NCBI GenBank assembly: GCA_019752125.1
Contig: JAIEMM010000007.1
Location: forward strand, 1-61,654
Length of the DNA stretch: 61,654 bases
Reading direction: 5' to 3'
Source: Patescibacteria group bacterium
Lineage (GTDB): Bacteria; Patescibacteriota; Minisyncoccia; Phycocordibacterales; SBAW01
Part shown: positions 2,500 to 57,504 of the stretch, in pieces
Numbering within the stretch: position 1 is the first letter of the stretch
How the letters are laid out: the number at the start of each line of letters is the position of its first letter
Program-made: the position numbers and the translations under genes
Notes under the pieces: generated by a model
What the model was told of the DNA's origin: nothing
The model's database searches: none
Seen by the model: the letters and a program-made list of their open reading frames with translations, nothing else

Positions 2500-2760
2500 A
2501 TGGCTCGGGTTCAAGCTTATTGTGCAGGATGCAGCGAAGCATTCGGAATGACTGCTCGTCGCAGCCACTACAACGGTCTTCAGTTCCACCACGTGGACTA
2601 CCAGAGTAAATGCTTGGAGGATTACAAGAAAAAACATCCTCCTCTGACCATCCGTCAACGAGTTGGTGGCTTTGTTCTCGCACTGCTCCCAGCGTTTCTT
2701 CAGCCATCCGAAGAAGAGAACAGTTCGACAACAGAAGTCATGCACGCCGCTGACGACTGA
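2500..2760 (+). CDS. Small hypothetical protein (86 aa), CxxC plus His/Cys possible Zn site and C-terminal hydrophobic stretch; accessory cassette
   Basis: ATG at 2500 preceded by SD AAGGGGA (2487-2493); followed by terminator. Confidence 0.65.
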   Translation: MARVQAYCAGCSEAFGMTARRSHYNGLQFHHVDYQSKCLEDYKKKHPPLTIRQRVGGFVLALLPAFLQPSEEENSSTTEVMHAADD

Positions 2761-2784
2761 CTCATCTTGTGCTGTATGCTACAG

Positions 2785-2812
2785 GGCGCCTGCGAAAGCG
2801 GACGCCTTTTTT
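2785..2812 (+). terminator. Intrinsic terminator
   Basis: GGCGCCTGC-GAAA-GCGGACGCC hairpin followed by T6. Confidence 0.75.
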
Positions 2813-2831
2813 CTTATGTTAAAATTTTTAC

Positions 2832-3812
2832 ATGACCTTTGCGATTTTAATGTCGCTCATTACTCTCGGCTTGTATTGTGTACAACAGCTGGGTGTCACT
2901 CTTGCTGTTGGTGCTGAAACAATATTGCTTGTTGCGTATCTTCAAGCGGTTCGTGATGGTGTTGTTGATGAAGAAGAAAAAGGGTTTGCCCGCGCAGTAC
3001 GAAGCGTTAAAGATTTCGGTTTGTTTTTCATAATCATTTCTGGAGGAGCTCTAGTGGCTAATCAGTTTTTTACCGGTCAGCTTAATGACTTTCTTTCAAT
3101 CACCGTGCTCTTTAAATGGAGCTTGATAGGTATCGGGCTTTTCTTAGGATTTGTTCGCGGTTCTGGTCTTATAACAGGATTGATACAAGGTCTTTCTGCG
3201 GGAACATGGTACGCGCTTTTTGCCGTCCATATCTTAGCGCCTGAAGCGCCTTGGGAGCAGCTCGTCATATTTTATGGGATCTGGCTTGTCGGATTTTGCA
3301 TGTGTTGGACCGTTCTTGTATTTTCATTACGAAATAAAAAAGCTGCGTATGTGGCCCCTGCGCGCCCGGTAGCTGCAAGTGCTGTGCCAAAGGCTGCTGT
3401 GGTAATTACTCCGGACAGGGTGAAGTCTACGCAGGAAACAGTCGTAGCCGAGCCTGCGCAAGCTCGTCCGATCGGTTCTGTCGAACCGCGGCCCGATCTT
3501 GCTCCGGCATCCGCGACATTTATTTCTCCGGTTACGATGACTATGCCGAAGCAGAACCCGGCTGCGGAGCCGAAGACCGACGCAGAGGGTTCTGCGCAGG
3601 CAAAACCACAACCTTCTATTCCGACTATTCCGACTCCTCCGACGCCGCCGTCTATGCCTATAGCGGCATCTATACCTCCTCCTGTTCCGCCACCTCCACC
3701 GCCAAAGGTTCCAGTGTCTGCTCCTACAACACCTCCGCCGCCAGCCTCATGGTTGCACGTGATGCCAAAAACACCTGAAGAGCTCGCAAAACGTAAGGAG
3801 CAGACGTCATAA
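2832..3812 (+). CDS. Hypothetical multi-pass membrane protein with long Pro/Ala-rich C-terminal tail
   Basis: About 5 hydrophobic segments in first 165 aa, then low-complexity Pro-rich tail; TGnTAAAAT 6 nt before ATG. Confidence 0.8.
   Translation: MTFAILMSLITLGLYCVQQLGVTLAVGAETILLVAYLQAVRDGVVDEEEKGFARAVRSVKDFGLFFIIISGGALVANQFFTGQLNDFLSITVLFKWSLIGIGLFLGFVRGSGLITGLIQGLSAGTWYALFAVHILAPEAPWEQLVIFYGIWLVGFCMCWTVLVFSLRNKKAAYVAPARPVAASAVPKAAVVITPDRVKSTQETVVAEPAQARPIGSVEPRPDLAPASATFISPVTMTMPKQNPAAEPKTDAEGSAQAKPQPSIPTIPTPPTPPSMPIAASIPPPVPPPPPPKVPVSAPTTPPPPASWLHVMPKTPEELAKRKEQTS
3547..3600. repeat. Palindromic element (45-nt stem-loop plus flanks), copy 1, within CDS
   Basis: Core 3559-3581 identical to 36829-36851; closing 9-bp stem GCAGAACCC/GGGTTCTGC. 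Confidence 0.85.
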
Positions 3813-3817
3813 TCAAC

Positions 3818-4432
3818 ATGCATTTTTTTAAAGACGCACCAAAAAAGAACATCGTTATCTTGCTCGGACACCCTGATACTTCACAAACGCTCTGTGGTGA
3901 GCTTGCGTTGTTGTATGAAAGTGCAGCAAAAAAGGCAGGGCATGAGGTGAAACGTTTTAATCTTGGCGAAATGAATTTCGATCCCATCATGCATAAGGGA
4001 TATAAGGAGATACAACAGCTCGAGCCCGATCTTGTTAAATTTCAAGACGCTATTCGTTGGAGCAATCATTTCGTCGTCATATATCCAAACTGGTGGTGCA
4101 CCATGCCAGCGCTTTTAAAAGGTTTGTTCGATCGCGTATGGCTGCCAGGGTTTTGTTTCCACATGATTAAAAACGCAGAGGGCAAACAAAAGATGGGCTG
4201 GCATAAATTATTGAAAGGTAGAACGGCGCGTGTTGTTGTTACCTCCGGTTCTCATCCAATGCTTATCTATTTGTTCTTTGGTGACTATACAAATGAAATA
4301 AAAAGGGGGATTCTGTGGTTTGCTGGGTTTAAAACAAAACTTACTAAGTTTGGTCCTGCAGAACATGCTCCTGAATGGAAACTCAACGAGTGGCGACGCA
4401 CAATTGCACGGCTAGGGAGACTGGGGGAATAG
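3818..4432 (+). CDS. NAD(P)H-dependent oxidoreductase, flavodoxin-like fold (quinone reductase family)
   Basis: ILLGHP...S, YPNWWCTMPALLKGLFDRV, LLKGRTARVVVT motifs. Confidence 0.9.
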   Translation: MHFFKDAPKKNIVILLGHPDTSQTLCGELALLYESAAKKAGHEVKRFNLGEMNFDPIMHKGYKEIQQLEPDLVKFQDAIRWSNHFVVIYPNWWCTMPALLKGLFDRVWLPGFCFHMIKNAEGKQKMGWHKLLKGRTARVVVTSGSHPMLIYLFFGDYTNEIKRGILWFAGFKTKLTKFGPAEHAPEWKLNEWRRTIARLGRLGE

Positions 4433-4537
4433 GGTATCGACAAAGCAGCTTTTTGTGCAATACTTGACCGCGTTGTGTTCTTTTGAGTACGTGTAAACTT
4501 TTGCTACCCTTTTCAAAACCATTTCTGGAGATGCCAA

Positions 4538-5245
4538 ATGCTACGGTTTTTATGTGGGCTCGCGCTCGCGTTCCTTCTGGGAGCGTGTGTGAGCGAAGGT
4601 AGTGGCGGGTACGTTGCGACCTCTGCTCCGTCGGCTGCCCTCTCGTCTGGCGACATCTGCGACGACGACGAATGCGCCGTCATGGTGGCTGACCGCCCCA
4701 ACGAAGTGCTCTATTTCGGCCGTGGGCCCATGTGGGGCACGCCGCTCTACGCGATCGCCTGGGAACCCGGCTACAGTATCCCGTGGGGTCTCCGGTACTA
4801 CAATCGCTGGAACGGTGTCGTCGTCAACAGAACTGTTTTCCAGACGGTCGCCGTCGACCGCGGGTGGAATCGCTCGGTCTTCGCTGCCAACGTTGCGCCG
4901 CGCGGCGTCCATCCGTTCCGCGGCAATACTGCGGTGCGGCTGCCGAACGGCACTTCGGTCGCGTACAACAACCGTCGCGATCACATCAGGCCGGTCACCG
5001 GTTTGCCGTCTCGGCCTCCGGTGCATGCCGGTGTTGCTCCGCCGTCGCGGCCTCCGGTCCATACTGGTGTGACGCCCCGACCGCCGCAACACACGGCTCC
5101 GCCTGTGCGTACGGCGCCCCCGCCGTCGCGGCCTCCGGTGCAGCACGTTTCCACTCCGCCGCCCCGGGTCTATGCGCCTCCGCCTCGGCCTGCGCCGGCC
5201 CCTCAGCGCAGGAGCTGTGGCGGGCGCGGCGAGCCCAGGTGCTAA
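4538..5245 (+). CDS. GC-rich hypothetical lipoprotein with Pro/Arg-rich repetitive tail; accessory cassette
   Basis: Lipobox-like LLGAC at residue 17; SD GGAG upstream; about 67% GC in sampled line 4621-4680; three 21-nt PSRPPV(H/Q) repeats at 5005, 5041, 5122. Confidence 0.75.
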   Translation: MLRFLCGLALAFLLGACVSEGSGGYVATSAPSAALSSGDICDDDECAVMVADRPNEVLYFGRGPMWGTPLYAIAWEPGYSIPWGLRYYNRWNGVVVNRTVFQTVAVDRGWNRSVFAANVAPRGVHPFRGNTAVRLPNGTSVAYNNRRDHIRPVTGLPSRPPVHAGVAPPSRPPVHTGVTPRPPQHTAPPVRTAPPPSRPPVQHVSTPPPRVYAPPPRPAPAPQRRSCGGRGEPRC

Positions 5246-5353: not shown

Positions 5354-5647
5354 ATGAATCTGAAGGTGTTTGCTGCTCTCGCGCTAGCGATGCTGTCTGT
5401 TGCCGCGTGTGGAATCCCACCGCTTTATACCACTCGCGTGGTTGCGGTTGCTTCTCCGCCGATTGTTGAGGTCGCCGGCGACTACTACTATCCGCTCAAC
5501 TGCTACGAGTTCGGGTGTGCACACCGTGTCGTCGTGGTGGGTGGCCGTCGCGGCTACTATATCGGACCAAGATTCTACCCATATGTTGGACGCGTCTACT
5601 ATCACGGCTACGGCCCATGGCGCCGTCCTGTATGGGTCTACATCTGA
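5354..5647 (+). CDS. Small hypothetical lipoprotein, Tyr/Gly/Arg-rich; accessory cassette
   Basis: Signal peptide ending VAAC; SD GGAAAGGAG; TAGACT-17-TATAAC promoter candidate. Confidence 0.7.
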   Translation: MNLKVFAALALAMLSVAACGIPPLYTTRVVAVASPPIVEVAGDYYYPLNCYEFGCAHRVVVVGGRRGYYIGPRFYPYVGRVYYHGYGPWRRPVWVYI

Positions 5648-7812: not shown

Positions 7813-10647
7813 ATGGAAAAATACAATCACAAGGAGATAGAAAAGAAGTGGCAGAAGCGATGGGAAGAATCGCAGTTGTATAAAACATCGGAAGATCCGA
7901 ACAAACCAAAAACCTATGTGCTCGACATGTTTCCGTACCCGTCAGGGGAAGGGTTGCATGTTGGCCACCCAAAAGGGTATATCGCAACTGATATTTACTC
8001 ACGTTTCAAGCGTATGCAAGGTCACAACGTACTCCACCCAATGGGATGGGATGCCTTTGGCCTGCCTGCAGAAAACTTCGCAATCAAGAACAAAATCCAT
8101 CCTCGCATTGCAGTTGAGAAAAACATCGCAACGTTCAAAGATCAATTGTCACACATTGGTTTTAACTACGACTGGTCTCGCGAGATAAATACGACTGATC
8201 CTGAATACTATAAATGGACGCAATGGATCTTCCTCCAGCTCTATAAGAAGGGCTTGGCGTATCAGTCAAATGAACCAATCAATTGGTGCCCTTCGTGTAT
8301 GACAGGTCTCGCGAATGAAGACTTGGATGGCAATGTGTGTGAACGCTGCGGCAGCGAAGTTGAAAAACGCGCGCTCCCACAGTGGGTGCTCAAAATCACT
8401 GCCTATGCAGACCGCATGCTTACCGACTTGGACGCGCTCGACTGGCCAGAACATATCAAAACCGCGCAGCGCAACTGGATAGGTAAGAGCGAAGGATCAG
8501 AGATTGAATTTGCGATCGCTGGCAGCGATAAAAAGGTAAAAGTATTTACCACCCGCGCTGACACATTATTTGGCGCAACATTTTTGGTGCTTGCTCCTGA
8601 ACACCCCCTACTTCGCCAAGGCTTCGCAGGGCAAGCTCTCGAAAATCAAAAAGAAGTTGATGAATATATTGCCAAAGCTGCTGCAAAAACAGAAATTGAA
8701 CGTACGAATGTTGAGAAAGAAAAGACTGGCGTAGAACTTAAGGGTGTTAAGGCAATCAATCCCGTAAACAATACAGAAATCCCAATATATGTTGCCGATT
8801 ATGTGTTAACTGGATACGGCACCGGCGCCATTATGGCCGTACCTGCTCACGACGACCGCGACGCTGCATTTGCAAAAAAGTTTGGAATCGAAATACGTGA
8901 CGTTATCTCACAAAAGTTTGATCTTGAAGGAATGCATGCTGAGCGCCCGGATGTCGAAACAATCACTCGTATAGTAGTCGATCCTATCCTTAGAGATAAA
9001 GATAATAATTTTTATCTTATAAAAGAGGGGTCGGAACACGTTCATTTTGCGGGTGGTGGTGTCGAAGAAGGAGAAACTGATGAAGAAGCCCTTGCTCGAG
9101 AAATCACAGAAGAAACAGGATTCACTGATTTTACAATTGGTAGAAAAATACTCCCAAATTCATCTGTTTGGGGTTATCGACATACAAAAAATAAAAACCA
9201 ACGTTCTGTAGGTTACGCGTACGAAGTCGTACTACATTCGGACACTAGGGTACATTCGGAAGTCGAGGATGGAAAACATGAGCTCGTAAAAGTCTCAAAA
9301 GATAAAGTGCTGGAGACTATTACGTGGCCGCATCATAGGTATTTGTTCGAGCAATACTTGGATGAGAAATTCTTTACTGATGATGGAATTCTTATAAATT
9401 CTGGTAATTTTGACGGCCTAACTTCGAAAGAGGCAAGAGTAAAAATTACAGAAGCTGTTGGAGGCAAGATGACTTCAACGTACAAGATTAAAGATTGGGT
9501 ATTTAGCCGTCAGCGATATTGGGGAGAACCTATTCCGATCATTCATTGTCCTAAGGATGGTGCAGTAGCTGTTCCAGATGACCAGCTTCCCGTAACACTT
9601 CCAGAAGTAGAGTCGTATGAACCATCTGGAACGGGCGAGTCTCCACTCGTAAATATTACTGAGTGGGTTAATACGACCTGCCCAACGTGCGGCGGCCCTG
9701 CAAAACGCGAAACAAACACCATGCCTCAGTGGGCAGGTTCTTCGTGGTACTACCTTCGCTTCATGGATCCGAATAACAGCAAGGCGCTTGTTGCACAAGA
9801 CAAAGAGAAATACTGGGCACCTGTGGATGTATACGTCGGCGGCGACCACGCAGTGCGTCATCTTATTTACGCGCGCTTCTGGCACAAGTTCCTCTACGAC
9901 ATCGGCTCAGTTTCTACTATCGAACCATTCGCACGTCTTGAATTCCTCGGATTTATCTTGGCAGAAGACGGTCGCAAGATGAGTAAACGCTACGGCAACG
10001 TCATCGACCCAACTGATGTAGTTGCAACGTATGGTGCAGATGCATTTCGTACCTACGAAATGTTTATGGGGCCGTTTGAAAATACCGTTGCGTGGAGCAC
10101 TTCTTCTATCACCGGCACTGCGCGCTTTATTGAACGTGTATATAAAATTGAACCAGGTTCTACAGAGGTAAAATCTCTCAACCCAATTCTTCATCAAACT
10201 ATCAAGAAAGTTACGGAAGATATTGAAGCATTCAAATTTAATACAGCCATCAGTCAAATGATGATACTTCTGAATGCTATTGAGAAAGAGGCATCTGTAG
10301 GTAAAGAACAATGGGAAAATTTCTTGAGAATACTTGCGCCATTCGCTCCTCATGTAACTGATGAACTCTGGGAAAAACTTGGTCACACAGAATCAATTCA
10401 TCTTTCGACCTGGCCAGTATATGATCCTGCAAAAACAGTTGCCGATACTGTAACGGTCGCAATTCAGGTAAATGGGGTCACAAGGGGATCTATAGATTTA
10501 CCAAAGAATGTTCTTCAGCAAGACGCACTTCTGGAAGCAAAGAAAGTTGTTGAAAAATGGCTTACACAGGAGGTAATTCGAGAAATATACGTACCTGGTA
10601 GGATAATTAACTTTGTTATGGTGTCTCCCCACACCACGGCTTTGTAG
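7813..10647 (+). CDS. leuS: Leucine--tRNA ligase with inserted NUDIX domain
   Basis: MFPYPSGEGLHVGH (HIGH), FTTRADTLFG, GTGAIMAVPAHDDRD editing motif, KMSKR. Confidence 0.98.
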   Translation: MEKYNHKEIEKKWQKRWEESQLYKTSEDPNKPKTYVLDMFPYPSGEGLHVGHPKGYIATDIYSRFKRMQGHNVLHPMGWDAFGLPAENFAIKNKIHPRIAVEKNIATFKDQLSHIGFNYDWSREINTTDPEYYKWTQWIFLQLYKKGLAYQSNEPINWCPSCMTGLANEDLDGNVCERCGSEVEKRALPQWVLKITAYADRMLTDLDALDWPEHIKTAQRNWIGKSEGSEIEFAIAGSDKKVKVFTTRADTLFGATFLVLAPEHPLLRQGFAGQALENQKEVDEYIAKAAAKTEIERTNVEKEKTGVELKGVKAINPVNNTEIPIYVADYVLTGYGTGAIMAVPAHDDRDAAFAKKFGIEIRDVISQKFDLEGMHAERPDVETITRIVVDPILRDKDNNFYLIKEGSEHVHFAGGGVEEGETDEEALAREITEETGFTDFTIGRKILPNSSVWGYRHTKNKNQRSVGYAYEVVLHSDTRVHSEVEDGKHELVKVSKDKVLETITWPHHRYLFEQYLDEKFFTDDGILINSGNFDGLTSKEARVKITEAVGGKMTSTYKIKDWVFSRQRYWGEPIPIIHCPKDGAVAVPDDQLPVTLPEVESYEPSGTGESPLVNITEWVNTTCPTCGGPAKRETNTMPQWAGSSWYYLRFMDPNNSKALVAQDKEKYWAPVDVYVGGDHAVRHLIYARFWHKFLYDIGSVSTIEPFARLEFLGFILAEDGRKMSKRYGNVIDPTDVVATYGADAFRTYEMFMGPFENTVAWSTSSITGTARFIERVYKIEPGSTEVKSLNPILHQTIKKVTEDIEAFKFNTAISQMMILLNAIEKEASVGKEQWENFLRILAPFAPHVTDELWEKLGHTESIHLSTWPVYDPAKTVADTVTVAIQVNGVTRGSIDLPKNVLQQDALLEAKKVVEKWLTQEVIREIYVPGRIINFVMVSPHTTAL
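8606..8635. repeat. 30-nt palindromic element in frame in leuS (LRQGFAGQA)
   Basis: 20/30 nt identical to 24597-24626, with compensatory stem changes. Confidence 0.7.
8915..9370 (+). other. NUDIX hydrolase domain inserted in LeuRS (boundaries approximate)
   Basis: Exact Nudix box G-x5-E-x7-REITEETGF at 9055-9123, between IRDVIS and the LeuRS FTDDGILINSG segment. Confidence 0.9.
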
Positions 10648-13578: not shown

Positions 13579-14529
13579 ATGGGATTCTATGTACGAGCCG
13601 CATTGATAGGCGGCATTATTTTCAGTTTTCTCGTGTATCTTTTTCTATTCTCTGCGCCGCGCTCTTTCCCGCAGCAACTTCTTCTCCCAGTTCACAGTGG
13701 GGAAACGGGGTATGAAATTGCATCTGCGTTGAAAGCTAGTGATGCGATACGTTCGCAGCTTGTATTTCGCGCACTGCTAAGACTTTCTGGCTCAAGTAGC
13801 CATGTTATTGCCGGCACATATTATTTTCCACATCCGCAAAACGTTTTTACTATTGTGTGGCGTCTGCAAACTGCAAACTTTGGTGTAGAGCCTATTAAAG
13901 TAACCATACCAGAAGGTAATGACGTGGCACGTATGAGCGCCATACTTGAGCAAGCGCTGCCAACTTTCGACTCGGGCACATTTTTGACCATCGCAAAACC
14001 ACAGGAAGGCTATCTTTTCCCAGACACGTACTTCCTCTATCCTGGTCAAAGTATGTCAGACATAGTCAAAGCTATGCGAGATAATTTTACGGCGCACATA
14101 CAGGATACGGTTGTACAGCAAACGCTTACCGCCTCAGGAAGATCTCAAACTGACCTTGTCATAATGGCATCGCTTCTTGAAAAAGAAGCGCCAGATACGG
14201 CGAACCGTCAGATTATCTCCGGGATTTTATGGAAGCGCCTTAGCCTCGGAATGCCGCTACAAGTAGATGCAGTATTTCCTTTTATTACTGGCAAACCAAT
14301 TGATGCTATTTTGCAGAGTGACTACAAAATCGATTCTCCGTACAATACCTATCTATACAAAGGGCTGCCTCGAGGGCCCATAACAAACCCAGGGTTAGAT
14401 GCCATTATTGCGGCCGCAACACCAACCACAACGCCGTATCTCTACTACCTGTCAGACAAGAAGGGGGTATTTCATTACAGCAAAACTTTTAACGAACAAC
14501 TCGCCAACCAAAGAAAATATTTGAAGTAA
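13579..14529 (+). CDS. mltG: Endolytic transglycosylase MltG
   Basis: EGYLFPDTY, MASLLEKE, GMPLQVDA, SPYNTYLYKGLPRGPITNPG. Confidence 0.95.
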   Translation: MGFYVRAALIGGIIFSFLVYLFLFSAPRSFPQQLLLPVHSGETGYEIASALKASDAIRSQLVFRALLRLSGSSSHVIAGTYYFPHPQNVFTIVWRLQTANFGVEPIKVTIPEGNDVARMSAILEQALPTFDSGTFLTIAKPQEGYLFPDTYFLYPGQSMSDIVKAMRDNFTAHIQDTVVQQTLTASGRSQTDLVIMASLLEKEAPDTANRQIISGILWKRLSLGMPLQVDAVFPFITGKPIDAILQSDYKIDSPYNTYLYKGLPRGPITNPGLDAIIAAATPTTTPYLYYLSDKKGVFHYSKTFNEQLANQRKYLK

Positions 14530-14555
14530 TCTAAATAAATGGTACTGTCCGTAGT

Positions 14556-15617: not shown

Positions 15618-15637
15618 CTGAAGGCTATACTTAGCCT

Positions 15638-16045
15638 GTGAGACAAAGAAAGGCGGCTCTCTTAATACTTGTACTTCTCGCCATCCTTGTTCTTGGGGCG
15701 TGGGGTCTTTTAACATTGCAAACTAAACAACAGGCCCCTACCACAGTTACGATTGATCTTCCGTTAATACTCCACCATTCAGTGCGGGATGGCGTTCATT
15801 CGTATAGCGGAACTATCTCACTACCCAATGCATGTAACACTCTTTCAAATGGGATATCGACAAAGGGCGTAGATCCTTCCCACCTCACCATCCAACTATC
15901 TGAAGGGAGCGTACCGTGTCCGAGCGCAGTAAAAACAGCAGTCGAGTTTCTTGTTTCGTTCACGGATGGCAGGACAGCACCTGTTGTTGACGCCGTGACC
16001 TTCAACGGAATGGAAGTACCTTTTACCCTTACGGAAAACCAGTAG
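15638..16045 (+). CDS. Hypothetical exported / membrane-anchored protein
   Basis: N-terminal TM, beta-rich domain with two Cys; TATACT 6 nt before GTG. Confidence 0.7.
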   Translation: MRQRKAALLILVLLAILVLGAWGLLTLQTKQQAPTTVTIDLPLILHHSVRDGVHSYSGTISLPNACNTLSNGISTKGVDPSHLTIQLSEGSVPCPSAVKTAVEFLVSFTDGRTAPVVDAVTFNGMEVPFTLTENQ

Positions 16046-20431: not shown

Positions 20432-20590
20432 TTGCCGATAGAAGCAAGTTCTACTGAGGATGCGAGAAATCGCGTCAGGGCAGCTGTGAGACACAACTAC
20501 AAGCTCACAAGCGTTGAGGATATCACGATCAGCGGAACCATCCTGACCCTCACAAAAGACGAAGCCAAGAAGTTCTTTCCTCATCGCTAG
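20432..20590 (+). CDS. Small hypothetical protein (about 52 aa, TTG start uncertain); accessory cassette
   Basis: AGGAAA upstream; stop followed immediately by terminator. Confidence 0.45.
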   Translation: MPIEASSTEDARNRVRAAVRHNYKLTSVEDITISGTILTLTKDEAKKFFPHR

Positions 20591-20614
20591 CACCACATGT
20601 CGTGGTGCTTTTTT
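20591..20614 (+). terminator. Intrinsic terminator
   Basis: CACCAC-ATGTC-GTGGTG plus T6. Confidence 0.65.
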
Positions 20615-30884: not shown

Positions 30885-31241
30885 ATGAAACTTCCCGAAA
30901 ACACCAATGCGTACCTGTGGGGCGCCGCTGTCGGTGCCATTGCACTCGCTGTCGTCGGCTTCAGCTGGGGCGGCTGGGTCACCGGCGGCACATCGGCGAA
31001 GAACGCGGCGGCTGCGGCCAATGATGCAAAGGTCGCCGTTCTCGCGCCGATCTGTGCCGCTCGTTTCCGGGGCCAGGACAACTCTGCGGGCAAGATCGCC
31101 GAGCTCGCCAAGGCCAGCTCCTGGGACCGCGGTAACATCATCGAAAAGAGCGGCTTCGCCTTGATGCCGGGCAGCAAGACGAGCGACTCAGATGTCTCGC
31201 GTGCCTGCGCCGAGCTGTTGGTCAATCTGCCCAAGAGCTGA
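30885..31241 (+). CDS. GC-rich hypothetical membrane-anchored protein of proteobacterial appearance; accessory cassette
   Basis: SD GAAAGGAAA; WGAAVGAIALAVVGFSWGGWVTGG...LAPICAARF motif; structured leader; terminator. Confidence 0.8.
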   Translation: MKLPENTNAYLWGAAVGAIALAVVGFSWGGWVTGGTSAKNAAAAANDAKVAVLAPICAARFRGQDNSAGKIAELAKASSWDRGNIIEKSGFALMPGSKTSDSDVSRACAELLVNLPKS

Positions 31242-31298: not shown

Positions 31299-31349
31299 CC
31301 ATGGTGTTTTCTGTTACACTGTGAATCTATTTAATAACTCTTTACATCT

Positions 31350-32056: not shown

Positions 32057-32129
32057 AAAATACGGTACAGTAGGGCAATGTATATGTCAATAAAGTTGAC
32101 TCCTAGCTTTTTTTGTGTAAAATGGTGCA

Positions 32130-34616: not shown

Positions 34617-34904
34617 CTAGACCCATTCCAGAAAGTGAAGCCGCCGCATCTGCCGCTCCAAGAAGCGAAAAATGCGGTGGATGATGAAGACCGTGATTGC
34701 ACACGCGACAACTGGGCCGAAGGTCAGCACCAGCTTGTCGCACAGCGGGATAAGGAAACCCTTGTGTTCGACACAGAAGATTTCCCACTGCCAGAAGCCG
34801 TAGTAAAGTTCTACCCAAACCATAGCGATTGTGGATAGAATTTGCAGAAGTGCGCTGAGGCACTCGATTGTTGAGCGCGTAGCTGTTTTTAGCGAACGAA
34901 TCAT
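34617..34904 (-). CDS. Small hypothetical membrane protein (95 aa); accessory cassette
   Basis: TTGACA-17-CATTGT promoter (34962-34934), SD GAGGAAAGGG, hydrophobic segments, terminator. Confidence 0.6.
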   Translation of the reverse strand: MIRSLKTATRSTIECLSALLQILSTIAMVWVELYYGFWQWEIFCVEHKGFLIPLCDKLVLTFGPVVACAITVFIIHRIFRFLERQMRRLHFLEWV

Positions 34905-38043: not shown

Positions 38044-38095
38044 AAAAAATAAAACCCGCATCCAAATTGATGCGGGTCCTTCTAAAATAGTTCTA

Positions 38096-38193
38096 TTAGC
38101 CCTGAGGCTCAGTGATTACGTCGATAGCGTCGGCGTAATCCTTTGCGGCCGCCAGCTTTCGAGTGCTTCGGTAGCCGTTCTCGGTTCAGCCAT
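38096..38193 (-). pseudogene. Mini-ORF cassette with apparent 1-nt frameshift (25 aa as read, 32 aa if restored)
   Basis: TTGACA-17-TAAATT promoter, SD GAAAGGG, terminator 38042-38077; -1 frame gives KLAAAKDYADAIDVITEPQG*. Confidence 0.4.
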
Positions 38194-38317
38194 GACTAGC
38201 CCTTTCATTGCTAGGGTGTGAAGATCAATACAAAAACAATTTACATATTTAATGCTGTTTTGTCAAGTATCTTTAAGCGAAGAAATATCAGAATTTTCTT
38301 GCTATAGTATCTTCATA

Positions 38318-39318: not shown

Positions 39319-39537
39319 TTAGTAGACCTGGAAATTGCCGATCTCGTCGAATCTTCTGGCCGCCTCGTTGGCGGGAGCGATGTTCCAGCCGTCGGGCAGA
39401 GTGTCGCCAAAGGCAAGGCCTGAATGGCCCGGAGCTTTGACGAAGATATAGATCCCGTCGGGCTTGCGGCGACGGACAACTCCGCCTTGATCGGTACCCC
39501 ACACAGGGTAGGGATATTCTGCGTTCTGATCGGCCAT
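39319..39537 (-). CDS. Small hypothetical protein (72 aa); accessory cassette
   Basis: TTGACG-18-TATAAT promoter (39615-39586), SD AAGGAGG, long hairpin 39267-39311 downstream. Confidence 0.7.
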   Translation of the reverse strand: MADQNAEYPYPVWGTDQGGVVRRRKPDGIYIFVKAPGHSGLAFGDTLPDGWNIAPANEAARRFDEIGNFQVY

Positions 39538-42486: not shown

Positions 42487-42672
42487 TTAACGAGGATATT
42501 CTTTCTCGATTTCGGCTATTGCTTCGCAGTACGAGCAAAGCTTTTTACCGATTTCAATTTTTTCGTGGCAGCTTTCGCAGCGCACATCATCATCGTTGAA
42601 TTCTTCAAGTTCGGTGTGCTCCGGTTCGTCTTCAACGTCCCAAAGCGTTCCGCTGCAATACAACGTAGTCAT
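42487..42672 (-). CDS. Small acidic zinc-finger-like protein (CxxC...CxxC, 61 aa); accessory cassette
   Basis: CESC/CSYC; SD AGGAGAAGG; TTGACA-17-TATACT promoter (42839-42811). Confidence 0.7.
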   Translation of the reverse strand: MTTLYCSGTLWDVEDEPEHTELEEFNDDDVRCESCHEKIEIGKKLCSYCEAIAEIEKEYPR

Positions 42673-42870
42673 GACCTTCTCCTATATTGGGTTGAACCAA
42701 AATAGAAGCCTACCCGCTTTCTGCACGCACGCAGGGGCAAAGGGTAGAGGATCGGCTCTCGGTCCTGATAGCCCACACAGACCGAAAGATATTTAAAGAA
42801 CGTAAGCTTGAGTATATCTTAAATATTCTATTTTGTCAATAGCCATCTACATAAGGTAAAGTATAAGGGA

Positions 42871-52036: not shown

Positions 52037-52810
52037 ATGACAGGATCTCAAATGTGGACCTCGTACTACACGATGGCCCGAAAAGAATTTGTGCGCATGA
52101 TACGTATCTGGTCGCAGACCCTTCTTCCACCTATCGTCACAACAAGTCTCTACTTTGTAGTGTTTGGCTCCTTCATCGGCTCCCAACTTGCTGAAATTAA
52201 TGGTTTCAGCTACATGCAGTTTATCGTGCCAGGCCTCATCATGATGTCGATGATCACCAGCTCATACATGAACACGGTGTCGACCTTCTATTTTGCAAAA
52301 TGGCAGCGCACGCTGGATGAAGTTCTTGTATCACCAACACCAAATTGGATTGTTATCGCAGGCTTTATCAGCGGGGGAATGATGCGTGGACTTATGGTGG
52401 GAGCCTTAGTGCTTCTTGTGTCACTCTTCTTTACGCACCTTGCGATCCACAGCGTGGTTATACTCGTGCTTGCAGGCATCCTTACAACAATGCTGTTCTC
52501 ACTTGCCGGCCTTGTAAACGGCATATTTGCAAAAGGCTTTGACGGTATCTCTATTGTTCCAACATTCGTTCTCACCCCGCTTACATACCTGGGTGGCGTA
52601 TTCTACTCAGTAAACCAATTCTCAGATTTCTGGCGCACGGTATCGCTGTTCAACCCGATTCTCTACATGATCAACGCCTTCCGTTACGGCTTCCTTGGCA
52701 TTAGTGATGTATCGATTGCCTTTAGCTTCTCAATGCTTGTGACAGCCAACGTAGTGCTCCTTGCACTCACGGCGTACTTGTTTAAGAAAGGGTGGGGCTT
52801 CAAGAACTAA
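52037..52810 (+). CDS. ABC-2 type transporter permease (YadH-like)
   Basis: QTLLPP, YMQFIVPGLIMM, PLTYLGGVFYS, NPILYMINAFRYG. Confidence 0.93.
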   Translation: MTGSQMWTSYYTMARKEFVRMIRIWSQTLLPPIVTTSLYFVVFGSFIGSQLAEINGFSYMQFIVPGLIMMSMITSSYMNTVSTFYFAKWQRTLDEVLVSPTPNWIVIAGFISGGMMRGLMVGALVLLVSLFFTHLAIHSVVILVLAGILTTMLFSLAGLVNGIFAKGFDGISIVPTFVLTPLTYLGGVFYSVNQFSDFWRTVSLFNPILYMINAFRYGFLGISDVSIAFSFSMLVTANVVLLALTAYLFKKGWGFKN

Positions 52811-53475
52811 AAAAGTTTTTGTGGCTTCTTGCCTCGCTTCCACTCAGTAAATTTGAGTGTATTGCGTTCAAGAGGGGAGGTCTTGCGTAAGCGTCTACGC
52901 GCGCTGTTTGCAATGATAGAAATGTGGGGCGACTCATCTAACTCTTCAGCAACGAAATCAAGATGCCCTTCCTTCCCCTCTGAGACAACCCATTGCTCTG
53001 GCTTATATCGACGTAGGTCGAATGGTTTTGAAAATGCCTTTAGGGTTTTGACGCCGTCATCTAGATAGTATTCGTGAAAATATGACATCGCGAGCTCTCG
53101 CGGGGTTTTATACACAGCATCGCGCCAACGCAACACAGCATGGTTAGTTTTACTTATTGCACCCCACCCGCCCTTTTCTTGAAAGAGGGTGACAACGTGG
53201 TCGTCGTCGTGCGCAAGCGTCTGCAGATCTAAAAGAAGAGGCTTGTGGCCATGGTAGGCGAGAGCGGCGGCGGCAAACAGCGCGCCTTCCATACAGTGAG
53301 CCACTCTTTCCCTTAGCATCTGACGAGGGGAACGGAGCGTGTCTCCGCGGGGTTCAAAATTTATAGGTAGGCTGTCGAGATAATCCTGTATCTTTTGAGG
53401 AGTATCCAATCGAGAAAAAACCTTGTGCTCCTCCTTCGTTAACAATTTCTTCAGGTTCTTTGTATACACTTTCAT
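52807..53475 (-). CDS. Hypothetical protein, transglutaminase-like (Cys-His)
   Basis: AHCMEGALFAAAAL, DDDHVV, WGAISKTNH. Confidence 0.75.
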   Translation of the reverse strand: MKVYTKNLKKLLTKEEHKVFSRLDTPQKIQDYLDSLPINFEPRGDTLRSPRQMLRERVAHCMEGALFAAAALAYHGHKPLLLDLQTLAHDDDHVVTLFQEKGGWGAISKTNHAVLRWRDAVYKTPRELAMSYFHEYYLDDGVKTLKAFSKPFDLRRYKPEQWVVSEGKEGHLDFVAEELDESPHISIIANSARRRLRKTSPLERNTLKFTEWKRGKKPQKLF

Positions 53476-53534: not shown

Positions 53535-53690
53535 ATGTTATATACCATTGCAATCGTCTTATTGATCTTGTGGCTACTGGGTATCGTCTCGTCGTACACC
53601 ATTGGCGGGTTTATTAACATCCTGCTTGTTGTCGCCGTAATCCTCGTCCTTATCCGCCTTATCCGCGGAGAGAAACCGTTCAATATATAA
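53535..53690 (+). CDS. lmo0937-family small membrane protein (51 aa)
   Basis: Manual translation MLYTIAIVLLILWLLGIVSSYTIGGFINILLVVAVILVLIRLIRGEKPFNI. Confidence 0.85.
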   Translation: MLYTIAIVLLILWLLGIVSSYTIGGFINILLVVAVILVLIRLIRGEKPFNI

Positions 53691-53738: not shown

Positions 53739-54233
53739 CTACCCACGCTCGTACGAAGAGAGCGCGTACGAAGAGGGCATAAAACGAAACGCGCTACCAG
53801 CCTTGATGGAATCCTGGCACCTGCGAACATCTTCCACCGCCAACCGACGCCCGAGAGGGTCGATCGCCTTGCTGCCGCTGACCTTGTTCCAGATGAGAGC
53901 TTTCGCCTTGTCGGCCTCGTCCCCAAAGAGCTGGATGATGGTGCCCTCCACCTTCATCTTGGAGACGTTCACCTGGTTGTAGCTGCCGTAGAGAGTGACC
54001 TCCTGCGTGGCGGCAAAGAGCTGGATCATCTCCGGATCTGCCGTGCAGAATATGACTTCTTGGGTCGCACCATCCTTCTCGCTGAAGGCGATAATGGCGC
54101 AGTGCCGTAAAAAGTCTTGACTCTCTTCTGGTTCGAAAGGATGTGCGTCGCCACGAGCCTTGAAGAACATGCTCCAGATGTGGGGCAAGTGTTTTACCCC
54201 ATTGTGCACGCTGAGAGGCTTGTACTGAGACAT
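53739..54233 (-). CDS. GC-rich hypothetical protein (164 aa); accessory cassette
   Basis: SD AAGGGAG before ATG 54233; GC-rich codon usage. Confidence 0.75.
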   Translation of the reverse strand: MSQYKPLSVHNGVKHLPHIWSMFFKARGDAHPFEPEESQDFLRHCAIIAFSEKDGATQEVIFCTADPEMIQLFAATQEVTLYGSYNQVNVSKMKVEGTIIQLFGDEADKAKALIWNKVSGSKAIDPLGRRLAVEDVRRCQDSIKAGSAFRFMPSSYALSSYERG

Positions 54234-54359: not shown

Positions 54360-54530
54360 TTATGGGTGCGTATGCACCTTCGGATAGCGCCAGTTTATAA
54401 CCATGCCCAACACGTAGATCAAGGCGACCGCCAAGGGTCCCCACCATCCGAACGCGTTGTAGGCCATGATGGCCAACAGCAAAATGAAGCCGTGGGCCAT
54501 CGTCACAGTCCCAATCCTTATGCCACCCAT
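54360..54530 (-). CDS. Small membrane protein (56 aa); accessory cassette
   Basis: Manual translation MGGIRIGTVTMAHGFILLLAIMAYNAFGWWGPLAVALIYVLGMVINWRYPKVHTHP; SD GGGAGAG. Confidence 0.65.
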   Translation of the reverse strand: MGGIRIGTVTMAHGFILLLAIMAYNAFGWWGPLAVALIYVLGMVINWRYPKVHTHP

Positions 54531-54828
54531 TTCGCTCTCCCAAGTTACGTTGAAGAAGTTAGGTAATATACTCTCAACAAGTCCTAAAGAACTATATCAC
54601 GTTTTTTAATTTTAGCAATACACCCAAGGCATATTAGTAGGGAAGGGCTTCCCTGTTTTTTTGGAGAAAAAATTTTCAACAAATTTTTATAGTTTTTTAT
54701 CAAACCAAACGGTAGGGATATCAGAAATAATTCTCAGACAGGTGCAGGGAAGAGAACAGGGACACAAAGTACAAGTCGTGATTCAACGGATCCAAGCCCA
54801 AGGGGATACTGAATTTTAATATAGGTAT

Positions 54829-54856
54829 ACGTCGCACAATATACCTTTTGCGACGC
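54829..54856. other. Candidate chromosome dimer resolution (dif-like) site, 11-6-11
   Basis: ACGTCGCACAA-TATACC-TTTTGCGACGC; arms 9/11 inverted; in gene-free gap at the orientation switch; KOPS polarity. Confidence 0.65.
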
Positions 54857-55002
54857 TTATTAGGCTCAATATAGAGGGGGCCTGGCTTAAGCCCTGTTTG
54901 AGCCGCTGGCTTTCAATTAATCCTTCCCCGCCCTATAGTTACTTTAGATTTGTCTCTTAGAATTATTTTATTTTTATTTAATTTACTCTCCTCTTTTCAC
55001 TT

Positions 55003-55361: not shown

Positions 55362-55380
55362 GGGGATTGACGACTTCCCT
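55362..55380 (+). promoter_or_regulatory. 19-nt promoter repeat copy 1 (contains -35 TTGACG)
   Basis: GGGGATTGACGACTTCCCT identical to 55548-55566; -10 TAATTT 16 nt after -35. Confidence 0.75.
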
Positions 55381-55423
55381 GTTCGTGGTAATTTGATTCT
55401 AGTAATTAACTGAGGAGGGTTCT

Positions 55424-55504
55424 GTGGGTCCTGACCATCTTTTGATTTGTGGGGCGGTAGTCGTCGCAATCCTTATCATAATCGCTCGTGCCCGTGAGTC
55501 TTAG
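55424..55504 (+). CDS. 26-aa hydrophobic peptide; accessory cassette
   Basis: SD GAGGAGG; GTG start; MGPDHLLICGAVVVAILIIIARARES; terminator 55507-55534. Confidence 0.55.
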   Translation: MGPDHLLICGAVVVAILIIIARARES

Positions 55505-55547
55505 CCGGCCGCCTTCTCCAGGCGGTCTTTTTTTATGTGGCCATGCG

Positions 55548-55566
55548 GGGGATTGACGACTTCCCT
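55548..55566 (+). promoter_or_regulatory. 19-nt promoter repeat copy 2
   Basis: Identical to 55362-55380; -10 TATTGT 16 nt after -35. Confidence 0.75.
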
Positions 55567-55613
55567 TTCTGTAGTATTGTGTTTTGGCACCATGTAACTG
55601 GAGGGCAAGACAA

Positions 55614-56015
55614 ATGAGCACGTTCAAGAATATCGAAGACATCGTGAAGGCGGATTTCAAGAAGGGTCTGAAGCTTCTGGACCGGGTCATGCCGGGCTGG
55701 CGCGCCAAGGTCAAGAAGCCCGTCAGCATCAGCGACGCCGCATCCTGCCCCATCGCCCAGATCACGGGCTCGAACTTCTTCCACGCCGACCTGGGGAAGT
55801 TCGGCTTCGACCCCGACACCGTCGCCCAGTTCAAGGACGTCTCGCTGAAAGGTTCCGACAGGGTTGCCCGCCAAGAGTGGGCGTCCCAGTTCGGCTTCTC
55901 GACCGGTGAACGGCACCAGAAGAACGAAAGAGGCCACTGGTGCCTGAGCACGCTGGGCTACGCGACGGAGATGTTCAACAAACTCTGGAACACGGAACTC
56001 GGCTTCACCGCCTAG
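55614..56015 (+). CDS. GC-rich hypothetical protein (133 aa), phage-like; accessory cassette
   Basis: SD GGAGG; about 63% GC in sampled line 55741-55800; LLDRVMPGW...C..AQ..G motif. Confidence 0.75.
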   Translation: MSTFKNIEDIVKADFKKGLKLLDRVMPGWRAKVKKPVSISDAASCPIAQITGSNFFHADLGKFGFDPDTVAQFKDVSLKGSDRVARQEWASQFGFSTGERHQKNERGHWCLSTLGYATEMFNKLWNTELGFTA

Positions 56016-56094: not shown

Positions 56095-56388
56095 CTACCA
56101 AAAAAGATTTCCGGAGGAATAGAATAAAGATATGATGACATACGGCGCGACTATCACCACACTCTGTAGAGCACTCAAGCTCTTTCTTTTCAAACAAAGC
56201 CAAACTAGGCCTGCAGAAATACCGCAGATCGCTATCAATACAAGATCTATTAAACCGATGACCATATACGAAGTGCTCATGGCACTGTACGCAAGGGCAA
56301 GAACAGCACCTGGTGCAAGTATGTACACTATATAAACCACAACAATACTGTGGACGGCGGCAAGAAAGGTTAAAATCCATTTAGACAT
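56095..56388 (-). CDS. Small 3-TM membrane protein (97 aa)
   Basis: MSKWILTFLAAV...; TATAAT 6 nt before ATG. Confidence 0.65.
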   Translation of the reverse strand: MSKWILTFLAAVHSIVVVYIVYILAPGAVLALAYSAMSTSYMVIGLIDLVLIAICGISAGLVWLCLKRKSLSALQSVVIVAPYVIISLFYSSGNLFW

Positions 56389-56460
56389 AGGATGATTATA
56401 AGGCACTAGTGTAAAAATCTCAGCTATTGACGAGATTAGAATATATGTTAGTGTGCGGCG

Positions 56461-56582
56461 AGTCCTGAGGTGAATCTGCTGCCCCAAACAGCCGAGACTA
56501 ATCTGACCTGTTCCTTTCCATTTCCACGTTCCTGGAGCAAGTTGGTGTCCCTTAGTCTTCACCTCAGGACAACTTCTTTTTT
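56461..56582 (+). ncRNA. Candidate structured small RNA of about 120 nt
   Basis: TTGACG-16-TAGTGT promoter (56427-56454); 13-bp closing stem 56462-56474/56558-56570; inner stem AGACTAA/TTAGTCT; 3' U-tract. Confidence 0.55.
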
Positions 56583-56640
56583 GTGATATCGTAGGCATGC
56601 ACCAAGAGTATCCTTAAGAGATACAAACGGAGGGCTGGAG

Positions 56641-56793
56641 ATGTCCAATTCATCAGAGGGTTCCAACAACCGCTATTTCCTGCACGGTTCCAGTTCGCAG
56701 GATTTGTGGCTGAAGAGGAGCGAGTCGTGGCTGTTCAGTCTGGCCGTGCTCGGTATCACCGCTCTGGTCTCGCTGATCATCCATCAGCTTTAG
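56641..56793 (+). CDS. 50-aa peptide with C-terminal TM; accessory cassette
   Basis: SD GGAGG; manual translation MSNSSEGSNNRYFLHGSSSQDLWLKRSESWLFSLAVLGITALVSLIIHQL; terminator 56792-56848. Confidence 0.6.
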   Translation: MSNSSEGSNNRYFLHGSSSQDLWLKRSESWLFSLAVLGITALVSLIIHQL

Positions 56794-56896
56794 ACCGCCC
56801 AGGTTTTCAATACAAAAGCCGCCCCTCATCAGGGCGGTCTTTCTTTTTATGTCTGTCCCAGGTAGTGTATTCAAAGTCTGTTCCCTGGGGGGTGTC

Positions 56897-57046
56897 ATGG
56901 TTCGATTTGCAGCACTCTGCCTATTTCTGCTGCTACTCAACTTCAACTTCTACTATGTTGTGAGCCAGGCCGGAGTGAGGAGAAACGCCACCGTCACCGG
57001 CAATTTTCCAGAGATTCTCGCGGCTATCATCGTGATCCTTTACTAG
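56897..57046 (+). CDS. 49-aa two-TM peptide; accessory cassette
   Basis: G-rich SD; MVRFAALCLFLLLLNF...EILAAIIVILY; terminator CTGCCA/TGGCAG at 57047-57068. Confidence 0.55.
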   Translation: MVRFAALCLFLLLLNFNFYYVVSQAGVRRNATVTGNFPEILAAIIVILY

Positions 57047-57066
57047 CTGCCATTTTTGGCAGTTTT

Positions 57067-57504
57067 TTATTTTCCAGCAGTGGCTAGAAGTTTGGCGTTT
57101 TGAGTTTTACCCCAGCACGGCTTGGACGAGTTCCAAGGAGTAGTTCCTTCTTTTTCATATAAGTAACGAGCGTAGGCCATATTTCCTTCAAGGGTATATA
57201 TGTCGTACCCAAGCTTCTTTGATGTGGCTAGGTGAAAGTCTTCGTTGACCTGCATTACACCGACGTCGCGGTTATTCTGCTTGCCACGATATATCTCCCC
57301 TTCTTTGTCGAATTGGCGGAAGTGAGATTCGCACTTAGAAATATCCACCATAACGGGGATATCGTAGAAGTACGCTTCTACCTGGTCGCGGATGGTCTGT
57401 GCCTGCGGAGCAATCCCCAAAGTCGGTACAGAAGGGGTTGTCGAGGCAGGGGTGGCACCTAGCGCTGATGAGAGCGCCAGAGCGAGGCCAAGAGCATAAG
57501 GCAT
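57067..57504 (-). CDS. Exported lysozyme-like / SLT transglycosylase-fold protein
   Basis: Signal peptide; ISKCES (catalytic Glu), DVGVMQVN, NMAYARYLY..EG..PW...CW. Confidence 0.8.
   Translation of the reverse strand: MPYALGLALALSSALGATPASTTPSVPTLGIAPQAQTIRDQVEAYFYDIPVMVDISKCESHFRQFDKEGEIYRGKQNNRDVGVMQVNEDFHLATSKKLGYDIYTLEGNMAYARYLYEKEGTTPWNSSKPCWGKTQNAKLLATAGK

Follow-up and report, generated by a model that had tools for sequence, protein, structure and literature searches.

Why do some fifteen small open reading frames (ORFs), scattered between housekeeping genes on contig JAIEMM010000007.1 of a Patescibacteria group bacterium, carry start and stop signals unlike those of the genes around them? 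A preliminary description of this stretch had taken them for a moron-like acquisition and expression system for portable single-gene units. The window, by which we mean the whole stretch analyzed (61.6 kb, 47.3% GC), contains genes for ATP synthase, leuS with a NUDIX insert, DUF5671, yceG, mnmA, and ribosomal proteins, as well as grpE-dnaK-dnaJ, several tRNA synthetases, and cell-wall genes; the host is an Adlerbacteria-like Parcubacterium of the candidate phyla radiation (CPR). Our analysis confirmed the observation itself and partly supported its interpretation. The units appear to be real stand-alone accessory genes, a few of which may be RNAs, and their origins appear to be mixed: one is a recent alphaproteobacterial import, while about half are syntenic, fast-evolving residents. 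Together they probably represent a flexible accessory gene set, built by occasional transfer and by recombination at gene junctions and not by a dedicated acquisition system.

We compared the 15 flagged ORFs, all of which are open (25–235 amino acids, aa), gene by gene with 59–60 core genes of the window. Minus-strand units are named by their left coordinate, i.e., 34617, 38116, 39319, 42487, 53739, and 54360. A Shine-Dalgarno (SD) site was considered strong at a duplex energy of -7 kcal/mol or stronger, and a terminator was a hairpin of -9 kcal/mol or better with a T-run no more than 80 nucleotides (nt) past the stop codon. Leaderless-type -10 boxes ended 4–11 nt before the start codon and were scored at ≥5/6 or ≥4/6 matches. 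Relatives were collected by a TrpS scan of species-representative genomes, yielding 80 loci (L001–L080); the best of these, L001 (Candidatus Adlerbacteria RIFOXYC1_FULL_48_26), has core proteins 90–98% identical to those of the window.

There were large differences between the flagged and core genes in how translation is expected to begin and transcription to end. Strong SD sites precede 11 of the 15 flagged ORFs and none of the 59 core genes, with median duplex energies of -8.3 and -1.7 kcal/mol, respectively (p = 8e-9). Likewise, a hairpin with a T-run follows 14/15 flagged ORFs compared to 3/59 core genes, and the top terminator matches of consensus scans of the window are the flagged-ORF sites. 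The reverse holds for the -10 box placed by the start codon: at ≥5/6 matches it is found at 15/60 core genes, 0/15 flagged ORFs, and 3.2% of all ATGs, and at ≥4/6 matches at 31/60 core genes and 13% of all ATGs. Given this position, 4–11 nt before the start codon, the boxes suggest that messages are leaderless for a quarter to half of the core genes, in line with the earlier impression of a core lacking SD sites. Clear examples are grpE (TTGACT-17-TAAAAT, with the box ending 6 nt before the ATG) and genes 25517 and 41020 (TATAAT with a 6-nt spacing to the start). By contrast, the predicted promoters of flagged ORFs lie 19–77 nt upstream, so these ORFs would have leaders; that of 42487 would be longer (~140 nt). 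These promoters had been described as often near-consensus. Their predicted presence stands, though their quality is uneven, from 39319 (11/12) and 38116 (10/12) through four at 9/12 to a weaker remainder.

The two sets also differ in codon usage. Median GC content at third codon positions (GC3) is 0.66 for the flagged ORFs and 0.44 for the core (n = 59, range 0.38–0.57; Mann-Whitney p = 3e-8). Since GC at the first and second positions of the cassettes matches the core, with strong codon periodicity and a rise confined to GC3, the difference is a genuine codon-level signal. Base frequencies at four-fold degenerate sites are A.29, C.24, G.16, and T.32 in the core and A.10, C.37, G.31, and T.23 in the cassettes. 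The shift spans all codon families and both C and G endings (CTG, GCC, GTC, AAG, ATC, and CGG are all up) and resembles that of 30885, the proven import described below. Three units (2500, 42487, and 55424) have core-like GC3 (0.48–0.49). Total GC of 63–67%, which had been ascribed to the sampled units, occurs only near 4538 (68%) and 30885 (64%), the other flagged ORFs being at 45–60%. Translational selection for high GC3 was considered and rejected, given that the ribosomal protein genes are unshifted (GC3 0.44–0.49) and that G-ending codons rise alongside C-ending ones.

Because the flagged ORFs had been picked partly on the traits tested, these statistics are partly circular. An unbiased census identified 55 sites with an SD, a start, and an ORF, of which 14 lie in the non-core 14% of the window and none at core gene starts. 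The split furthermore recurs in two unrelated CPR contigs, L086 (48.5% GC) and L087 (31% GC), that were fetched through the protein family of unit 53739: low GC3 and a -10 box ahead of the start codon, with no SD, mark the genes with Pfam functions, whereas small hypothetical genes have GGAGG-type SD sites and GC3 0.1–0.3 higher. We also ran our own ORF caller over ~84 sequences (the window, L001–L080, and L085–L087). This gave a modest enrichment, with a GC3 excess above 0.1 in 21% of SD-type accessory ORFs versus 1.1% of conserved genes, although the caller is crude and, due to spurious small ORFs and false internal starts, too noisy for a family-wide statistic. The sole RNA data for the units are two 151-nt metatranscriptome contigs. 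Full-text literature searches on leaderless transcription, SD, and CPR did not turn up any account of SD-led accessory genes forming a class in CPR genomes with leaderless expression.

The units are accessory, in that their presence or absence differs at conserved junctions of relatives. The core order rpsI-grpE-dnaK-ABC-dnaJ-trpS-asnS-pepA-scpA (ABC, ATP-binding cassette transporter) is conserved across relatives, and its junctions differ: the gaps range from ~10 nt to 2.4 kb (11–93 nt in L016, 0.3–2.4 kb in other relatives) with unrelated content. At the same junctions, relatives have SD-led, GC3-rich genes of their own (L016 3984–4427, L012 6164–6970, L003 4674–4973, and L088 12594–12881). 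A variable island lies between a 222-aa gene (52807–53475) and an exonuclease gene (57699–58301), spanning 4.2 kb in the window, 6.2 kb in L088, and 0.9–3.4 kb in more distant relatives. In L088, the closest relative, the island includes (at 13700–15800) a low-GC gene of 412 aa (GC3 0.32) that is missing from the window; its N-terminal motif, as we read it, would fit a SIR2-like protein with a possible role in defense.

The origin of one unit can be traced. Gene 30885 (30885..31241, plus strand) encodes a 118-aa membrane protein, with GC of 64%, GC3 of 0.78, and a terminator at 31264–31287. It has 977 homologues with up to 86% aa identity, all named ones being from Reyranella, Reyranellales, or Rhodospirillales, and its DNA is 82–84% identical to Reyranella-like contigs of 65% GC. 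This DNA identity runs only from the SD (GAAAGGA) to the stop codon; the upstream region and terminator hairpin of the window are not in the donor contigs, where the gene has a conserved native context between a fatty-acid desaturase and an amino-acid permease. Window-specific changes are biased from GC to AT (15, versus 5 from AT to GC), with GC3 at 0.78 compared to 0.82–0.83 in the donors. The 18 relatives that have rpsI at that junction lack the gene, and no counterpart occurs in the 80 loci. An AlphaFold model of the protein was of low confidence (pLDDT 48) and was set aside. Compared to L001, a 1308-nt block (30788–32095) stands in place of 21 nt. Besides the cassette, the block contains a DUF1993 gene plus a gap in which an orphan terminator lies; it begins just past the T-run of the rpsI terminator and ends just before the -35 element of the leaderless grpE promoter. 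No target duplication was found at this insert, the one insertion with definable ends, and independent contigs span both joints of 30885. Judged by these sequence comparisons, 30885 is a recent import from a Reyranella-like alphaproteobacterium that brought its SD along but not its terminator.

The marks of a transferred islet, i.e., distant relatives, absence in sisters, and odd composition, were found for 30885 only. Its donor lineage is identified as Reyranella-like alphaproteobacteria of the same water habitat, a possible clue to physical partners. Within the same 1.3-kb insert, the orphan minus-strand terminator (31888–31866, in the gap at 31860–32095) has no convincing ORF upstream and may belong to an RNA-only unit. 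Separately, the left contig end of L004 (1–1300) has genes with GC3 of 0.76–0.9, one of them an RsmD 57% identical to that of Sinorhizobium; this region is either a further alphaproteobacterial import or a chimeric contig end.

A portable, foreign origin does not extend to all units. Seven (2500, 4538, 5354, 34617, 39319, 55614, and 56641), i.e., about half, have orthologues at the same loci in relatives, an outcome that the preliminary description had itself named as refuting its reading. In these orthologues the SD is preserved, as are the terminator and G/C-rich codons wherever they were compared. AAGGAG-type SD sites are present in the relatives of 39319 and in three members of the 53739 family, one of them in a 31%-GC genome, and the terminators of orthologues hold their position while their stems co-vary. 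The divergence involved is substantial: at conserved residues, core four-fold sites of the window are 45–70% identical to those of L088, L085, L001, or L002, corresponding to a synonymous divergence (dS) of ~0.5–0.8. Retention of SD sites, terminators, and G/C-ending codons over such divergence indicates that this grammar is probably functional and under selection in the lineage. For units with same-locus orthologues, it appears to be a maintained property and not the scar of a recent arrival. Such persistence of SD sites and G/C-rich codons over long times is confined to this class.

These findings are best accommodated, in our view, by an accessory gene set that is renewed at permissive junctions. 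Core genes would be expressed without SD pairing, with operon-first genes leaderless and internal genes abutting or overlapping their neighbors. Accessory genes would survive only where insertion is harmless, namely in terminator-to-promoter gaps and in the variable island at 53.5–57.7 kb. Each unit would follow one plan: a sigma-70-type promoter, a leader of 20–140 nt with a strong SD, a short ORF often encoding a lipoprotein or membrane protein, and a strong intrinsic terminator. The latter would shield the neighboring genes, which would matter most for antisense insertions; all four units of the 34–43 kb block are indeed antisense to their neighbors, as had been reported. Slots could turn over in two ways. 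One is rare illegitimate insertion of foreign DNA, of which 30885 is the demonstrated case, with the DNA possibly entering by uptake or transformation. The other would be homologous recombination via conserved flanks, swapping divergent alleles or cargo between strains. Selection would then confine survivors to terminator-promoter gaps and favor strong terminators.

Several observations weigh against this account. The cassette orthologues have a GC content at four-fold sites (GC4) of 0.6–0.86 in both genomes compared (pooled ~0.73, ~190 sites) versus 0.40 in the core. Under import followed by neutral decay, a two-state relaxation (few sites, rough model) predicts that this excess would be halved per lineage; its persistence over a dS of ~0.5–0.8 is difficult to square with purely neutral decay since a common ancestor. 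In addition, the leaderless gene 56095–56393 has low GC3 (0.41) despite lying between 55614 (0.88) and 56641 (0.75). The same mosaic is present in L088; cassette composition would thus be a maintained trait of individual genes, for which plain transfer offers no explanation. A donor was found for one unit only, and most cassette proteins have no relatives beyond CPR-like contigs. Flank recombination is read from patterns, i.e., conserved promoters and terminators with changed cargo and an ABC transporter 64% identical to that of L001 beside neighbors at 94–96%, and the promoters, leaders, and transcription starts of the units are predicted. Finally, the state of the host's own 16S matters, given that the anti-SD motif was found in only 48% of Parcubacteria 16S genes, with the Parcubacteria lacking it overlapping the group that lacks uL1 (Tsurumaki et al., 2022; PMC9297842).

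Some of these points would be expected if the units were a native second expression class, in which an SD-led, G/C-codon, terminator-capped “dialect” is maintained for fast-evolving surface and accessory proteins and foreign origin is incidental. Selection could keep such a class because it stabilizes mRNA, raises output, or provides a separate route of initiation, for example. Besides the retention of signals in same-locus orthologues and the gene-specific offset resolved at <100 bp around 56095–56393, this is consistent with the 53739 family, whose members combine an SD with raised GC3 in three hosts of very different GC (family versus core: 0.73 vs 0.44, 0.66 vs ~0.45, and 0.25 vs ~0.15). 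Yet the codon shift is generic, being the same in the proven import 30885, which moreover got its SD by import. The ribosomal protein genes do not share the bias, three flagged units have core-like GC3, some junction inserts of relatives (L003, L004, and L007) fall below core GC3, and the selective mechanism is not known. We therefore consider a native class possible but rather unlikely as the main explanation. Regional GC-biased gene conversion, also considered as a source of the composition, is disfavored since in two genomes a low-GC3 gene sits between two GC3-rich genes within 100 bp.

Dedicated capture or exchange of cassettes at fixed slots, either integron-like or through the boundary hairpins, is improbable. 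Two slots do have the appearance of exchange: the 2500 slot compared to L085, and the 56.4–56.6 kb slot compared to L088 and L084, conserve the promoter and the terminator or downstream flank around diverged or different cargo. Every unit also ends in a hairpin, often with a T-run broken by a single C; such broken runs after hairpins number 20 in the window versus 6.2 expected, with 8 of the 20 at cassette terminators. However, homologous recombination through conserved flanks would account for the slot pattern just as well. In agreement with the preliminary description, no integrase, transposase, recombinase, or HUH enzyme was found among the scanned proteins of the 61-kb window, nor any attC-like site, target duplication, or repeat shared by unit ends. 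The terminator hairpins are unrelated in sequence, and the sole related pair of ends is a local promoter duplication (55362/55548); on the same grounds, repetitive extragenic palindromic or miniature inverted-repeat (REP/MITE-like) elements were dismissed as cassette borders. There is hence no evidence for the acquisition system that had been proposed.

An origin as phage morons, or as relics of prophages or another kind of mobile element, is less probable still, even though the promoter-gene-terminator layout between conserved genes is that of a moron and the L088 island has a SIR2-like gene typical of defense islands. With the full set of cassette proteins as queries, tblastn returned nothing from 50,697 phage records; no PHROGs family was matched, and scans of IMG/VR (four with single proteins and one with a family) found no relative apart from two weak matches to the 30885 family. 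Against plasmids, a tblastn search with the concatenated cassette proteins matched only the 30885 segment, and one with the junction genes of relatives matched only RsmD and a CheY-like gene. The neighbors are housekeeping genes for ATP synthase, tRNA synthetases, chaperones, and ribosomal proteins, not phage genes. As no phage link was found, “moron-like” can serve only as an analogy of layout.

The least probable explanation is an artifact, i.e., a chimeric assembly or chance ORFs in GC-rich terminator regions. In its favor, the window is from a metagenome, and three units (38116, 55424, and 20432) are both short and devoid of homologues and could represent RNA or non-coding sequence. Arguing against chimerism, short Logan contigs, assembled independently from three runs of a single drinking-water study, match the window at 100% identity across the joints between core and cassettes. 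In addition, orthologues occur in independent assemblies of relatives, GC3 alone is raised over core-like first and second positions with strong codon periodicity, most units have homologues, and 53739 has a confident predicted fold.

The favored reading, a flexible accessory set, has several implications. It provides a clean, quantified case in which the core and accessory genes of one organism differ in their start and stop signals, within the CPR, which comprise a large share of bacterial diversity and whose small genomes are poorly known with respect to expression and renewal. The accessory genes hold a few permissive junctions that turn over between species. Retained SD sites and G/C-rich codons also raise a question about translation initiation in a lineage otherwise without SD pairing. 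As a tentative generalization, which we regard as doubtful and a little less probable than the native class, Paceibacteria-type CPR might have two initiation channels: an SD-independent, largely leaderless bulk, and a selection-kept, SD-dependent class of stand-alone, fast-evolving accessory genes that retain G/C-ending codons, leaders, and terminators. If the 16S of this lineage lacks the anti-SD, the conserved SD sites would be read by something other than the canonical 16S tail, with the slot-encoded small RNAs that have CCUCC- or CCUUUCC-like tracts (56461–56582 and its L088 and L084 counterparts) as candidate readers; alternatively, the sites would have a non-ribosomal role. In practical terms, gene finders will mis-call one of the two classes, whether they were trained on SD sites or on the majority of genes that lack them.

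Among the originally listed units, protein-coding status is doubtful for three, namely 38116 (25 aa), 55424 (26 aa), and 20432, which has a TTG start and a weak SD. Two further units (53535–53690 and 56461–56582) had been missed. Searches of the cassette proteins against Pfam, PHROGs, and NCBIfam gave nothing above cutoff, and Rfam gave 0 matches in the window at the gathering threshold.

The first three units are all on the plus strand and have counterparts in L085. Unit 2500..2760 encodes a small Zn-ribbon-like protein (86 aa; SD -8.3 kcal/mol, GC3 0.49, terminator -16.4 kcal/mol at ~2785–2815), with a predicted promoter at 2410–2415 (TTGCGC) and 2432–2437 (TATAAA). In L085, the promoter and terminator DNA of this slot are conserved around a very diverged ORF with nothing recognizable in common beyond a CxxC..FG..RR motif and a C-terminal EVxxAAD. 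Unit 4538..5245 encodes a proline-rich lipoprotein (235 aa; GC3 0.73, terminator -17.3) with only three homologues among 5.8 billion proteins. Its orthologue at the same L085 locus is 53–60% identical, compared to 81–97% for core proteins there, and keeps the SD, terminator, and a GC3 of 0.68. Unit 5354..5647 encodes a small lipoprotein (97 aa; terminator -19.5, GC3 0.60 versus 0.73 in L085) whose SD, GGAAAGGAG, is identical in the window and L085; the same-locus orthologue is 74–81% identical. The doubtful ORF 20432..20590, also on the plus strand (52 aa; SD -5.4, GC3 0.58, terminator at 20589–20609), is antisense to both neighbors and has no ATG in frame; none of the collected relatives spans its junction.

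The units of the 34–43 kb block are on the minus strand. Unit 34617..34904, at the dnaK/ABC transporter junction, encodes a small membrane protein (95 aa; SD -7.4, GC3 0.66, terminator -24.8) behind a predicted TTGACA-17-CATTGT promoter. A 36% identical orthologue, with an SD, terminator, and GC-rich codons, lies at the same junction in L002, whereas L001, L016, and others lack the unit and have a gap of ~80 nt. The adjacent ABC transporter gene (34984–36813) is the one noted above, against dnaK and dnaJ at 94–96%; compared to L001, its DNA identity falls to 71% and its 5′ third is unalignable, which suggests allelic replacement by recombination next to 34617. Unit 39319..39537, at the trpS/asnS junction, encodes a 72-aa protein (SD AGAAGGAGG, -11.7; GC3 0.67) behind a TTGACG-18-TATAAT promoter. 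Orthologues of 37–51% identity, with an SD and a co-varying terminator, are found at this junction in L001, L002, and L012; the unit is absent in L003, L005, L007, L011, and L016, where gaps are 7–16 nt.

For 38116..38193, a 25-aa ORF or small RNA, the predicted promoter is TTGACA-17-TAAATT (38266–38238) and the terminator is at 38080–38051; no homologue was found in the 80 loci. The corresponding 187-nt minus-strand transcript (38050–38236) has a folding z score of -3.1, three internal hairpins, and a strong terminator, and its supposed SD lies in a hairpin loop, so that the unit may be a small RNA. Unit 42487..42672 encodes a small acidic Zn-ribbon-like protein (61 aa; SD -7.3, GC3 0.48, terminator -23.7) that weakly matches a double zinc ribbon below the Pfam cutoff and has no counterpart among the 80 relatives. 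In its upstream region (42673–42870), a GC-rich, probably structured leader segment with no Rfam match lies between the near-consensus promoter (TTGACA-17-TATACT at 42839–42811) and the SD.

The left half of the variable island opens with 53535..53690 (plus strand), a DUF5670 small membrane protein gene (Pfam E = 1e-14, GC3 0.62) with no SD and an 84% identical orthologue in L088. The minus-strand unit 53739..54233 encodes a 164-aa protein (SD -8.3, GC3 0.73, terminator -17.8) of a small family, with 41 representatives of 25–40% identity in CPR-like contexts. It is absent in L088; in L086 and L087, the family members are likewise preceded by an SD and exceed the core GC3 of their hosts. Its structural model (predicted local distance difference test score, pLDDT, of 91) matches flavin-binding or haem-binding split barrels in the PDB with template modeling (TM) scores of 0.5–0.6, from which a PNPOx/FMN-binding-like split-barrel fold is predicted. 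Unit 54360..54530 (minus strand) encodes a 56-aa membrane protein (SD -7.3, GC3 0.77, terminator -12.2, promoter TTGCTA-16-TATAGT), with no homologue in relatives. Beside it is a 472-nt AT-rich gap (54531–55002, 37% GC) with no ORF, divergent promoters, and a terminator-like plus-strand hairpin (54636–54657); one segment is conserved in L088, and two metatranscriptome contigs partly touch 54827–54859.

Further right, the doubtful 26-aa ORF 55424..55504 (plus strand; SD -12.6, GC3 0.48, terminator at 55507–55527) has no homologue in relatives. Its promoter GGGGATTGACGACTTCCC at 55362–55398 is duplicated at 55548–55584, ahead of 55614..56015 (plus strand; 133 aa, terminator -16.4), which has the most extreme codon bias (GC3 0.88). 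The SD of the latter, CTGGAGGGCA, is conserved in L088, four-fold-site GC is 0.86 in both the window and L088, and a 151-nt metatranscriptome contig spans 55605–55755. The protein search returned one homologue (59%, on L084), and 59% identical orthologues lie at the same locus in L088 and L089. Unit 56641..56793 (plus strand) encodes a 50-aa membrane protein (GC3 0.75, terminator -14.4) with an SD, CGGAGGGC, conserved in the window, L088, and L084 and orthologues of 51% identity. Orthologues of 55614 and 56641 are in the same order in L088/L089 and L084. The last unit, 56897..57046 (plus strand), encodes a 49-aa membrane protein (SD -10.2, GC3 0.64, terminator at 57045–57064), with no homologue in relatives.

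Between 55614 and 56641 lie two elements of a different kind. On the minus strand, a 167-aa ORF (56095–56598) is probably too long, with orthologues of ~101 aa in L088 and L084. Given these lengths and a perfect TATAAT 6 nt before an ATG at ~56393, the gene is likely 56095–56393, an accessory membrane gene of leaderless type; its L088 orthologue (40% identical) also has low GC at four-fold sites. On the plus strand, 56461..56582 is a predicted RNA-only stand-alone unit of 122 nt (folding z score -5.4) with no Rfam match. A 13-bp clamp (GTCCTGAGGTGAA...TTCACCTCAGGAC) encloses internal hairpins and a CCUUUCC-containing loop, and a U-tract follows. In L088 and L084, the conserved promoter and downstream flank of this slot surround another clamp RNA (GGTGCTGGAGGG...GCCTCCAGCACC), which has a terminator of its own.

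Elsewhere in the window, LeuS (7813–10647) has a NUDIX domain (residues 387–512) inserted past the editing domain, and the leuS of L085 also gives a NUDIX match. A 19-nt palindrome, AATCCGCCAGCTGGCGGAA, occurs four times inside core genes (34466, 39814, 41122, and 43447; two exact, two at 79–84%). A 42-nt repeat (3559–3600/36829–36870, 83% identical) and a 64-nt repeat (3451–3514/16995–17058) tie a gene of unknown function to other places in the window.

How do these units compare to known systems? As in the SD-poor Parcubacteria of Tsurumaki et al. (2022; PMC9297842), a report without mention of SD-bearing accessory genes, the core genes of the window lack SD sites. Many of its core starts also have a -10 box a few nt upstream. 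Frequent leaderless transcription is reportedly the hallmark of the bacterial “group C” genomes that Lomsadze and colleagues are said to have defined with GeneMarkS-2 in 2018, and the window resembles them in this respect. Operon-internal genes of such genomes usually retain SD sites, whereas here SD sites are confined to the accessory units.

Genomic islets and individually transferred genes undergo compositional amelioration. The units resemble them in their atypical GC3, patchy spread, and position at operon boundaries, and one has an identifiable donor at 82–84% DNA identity with drift from GC to AT. Simple amelioration would nevertheless predict otherwise than what is seen in the older units, whose orthologues keep the GC3 excess and SD at a dS of ~0.5–0.8. 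Integron cassettes, like these units, are single-gene and swappable at a fixed position; they are typically promoterless, in contrast to the units here, which have their own predicted promoters, are dispersed and not arrayed, and come with no IntI, attC, or attI. A resemblance in layout is seen to phage morons, which are autonomous promoter-gene-terminator units between conserved genes of lambdoid and HK97-like phages. Like morons, the units are single genes with a predicted promoter and terminator of their own, wedged between conserved genes, patchy between close relatives, and often odd in composition. Unlike morons, they have no viral relatives in the searches made and are set in the housekeeping chromosome of a cell, where several have become old, syntenic residents.

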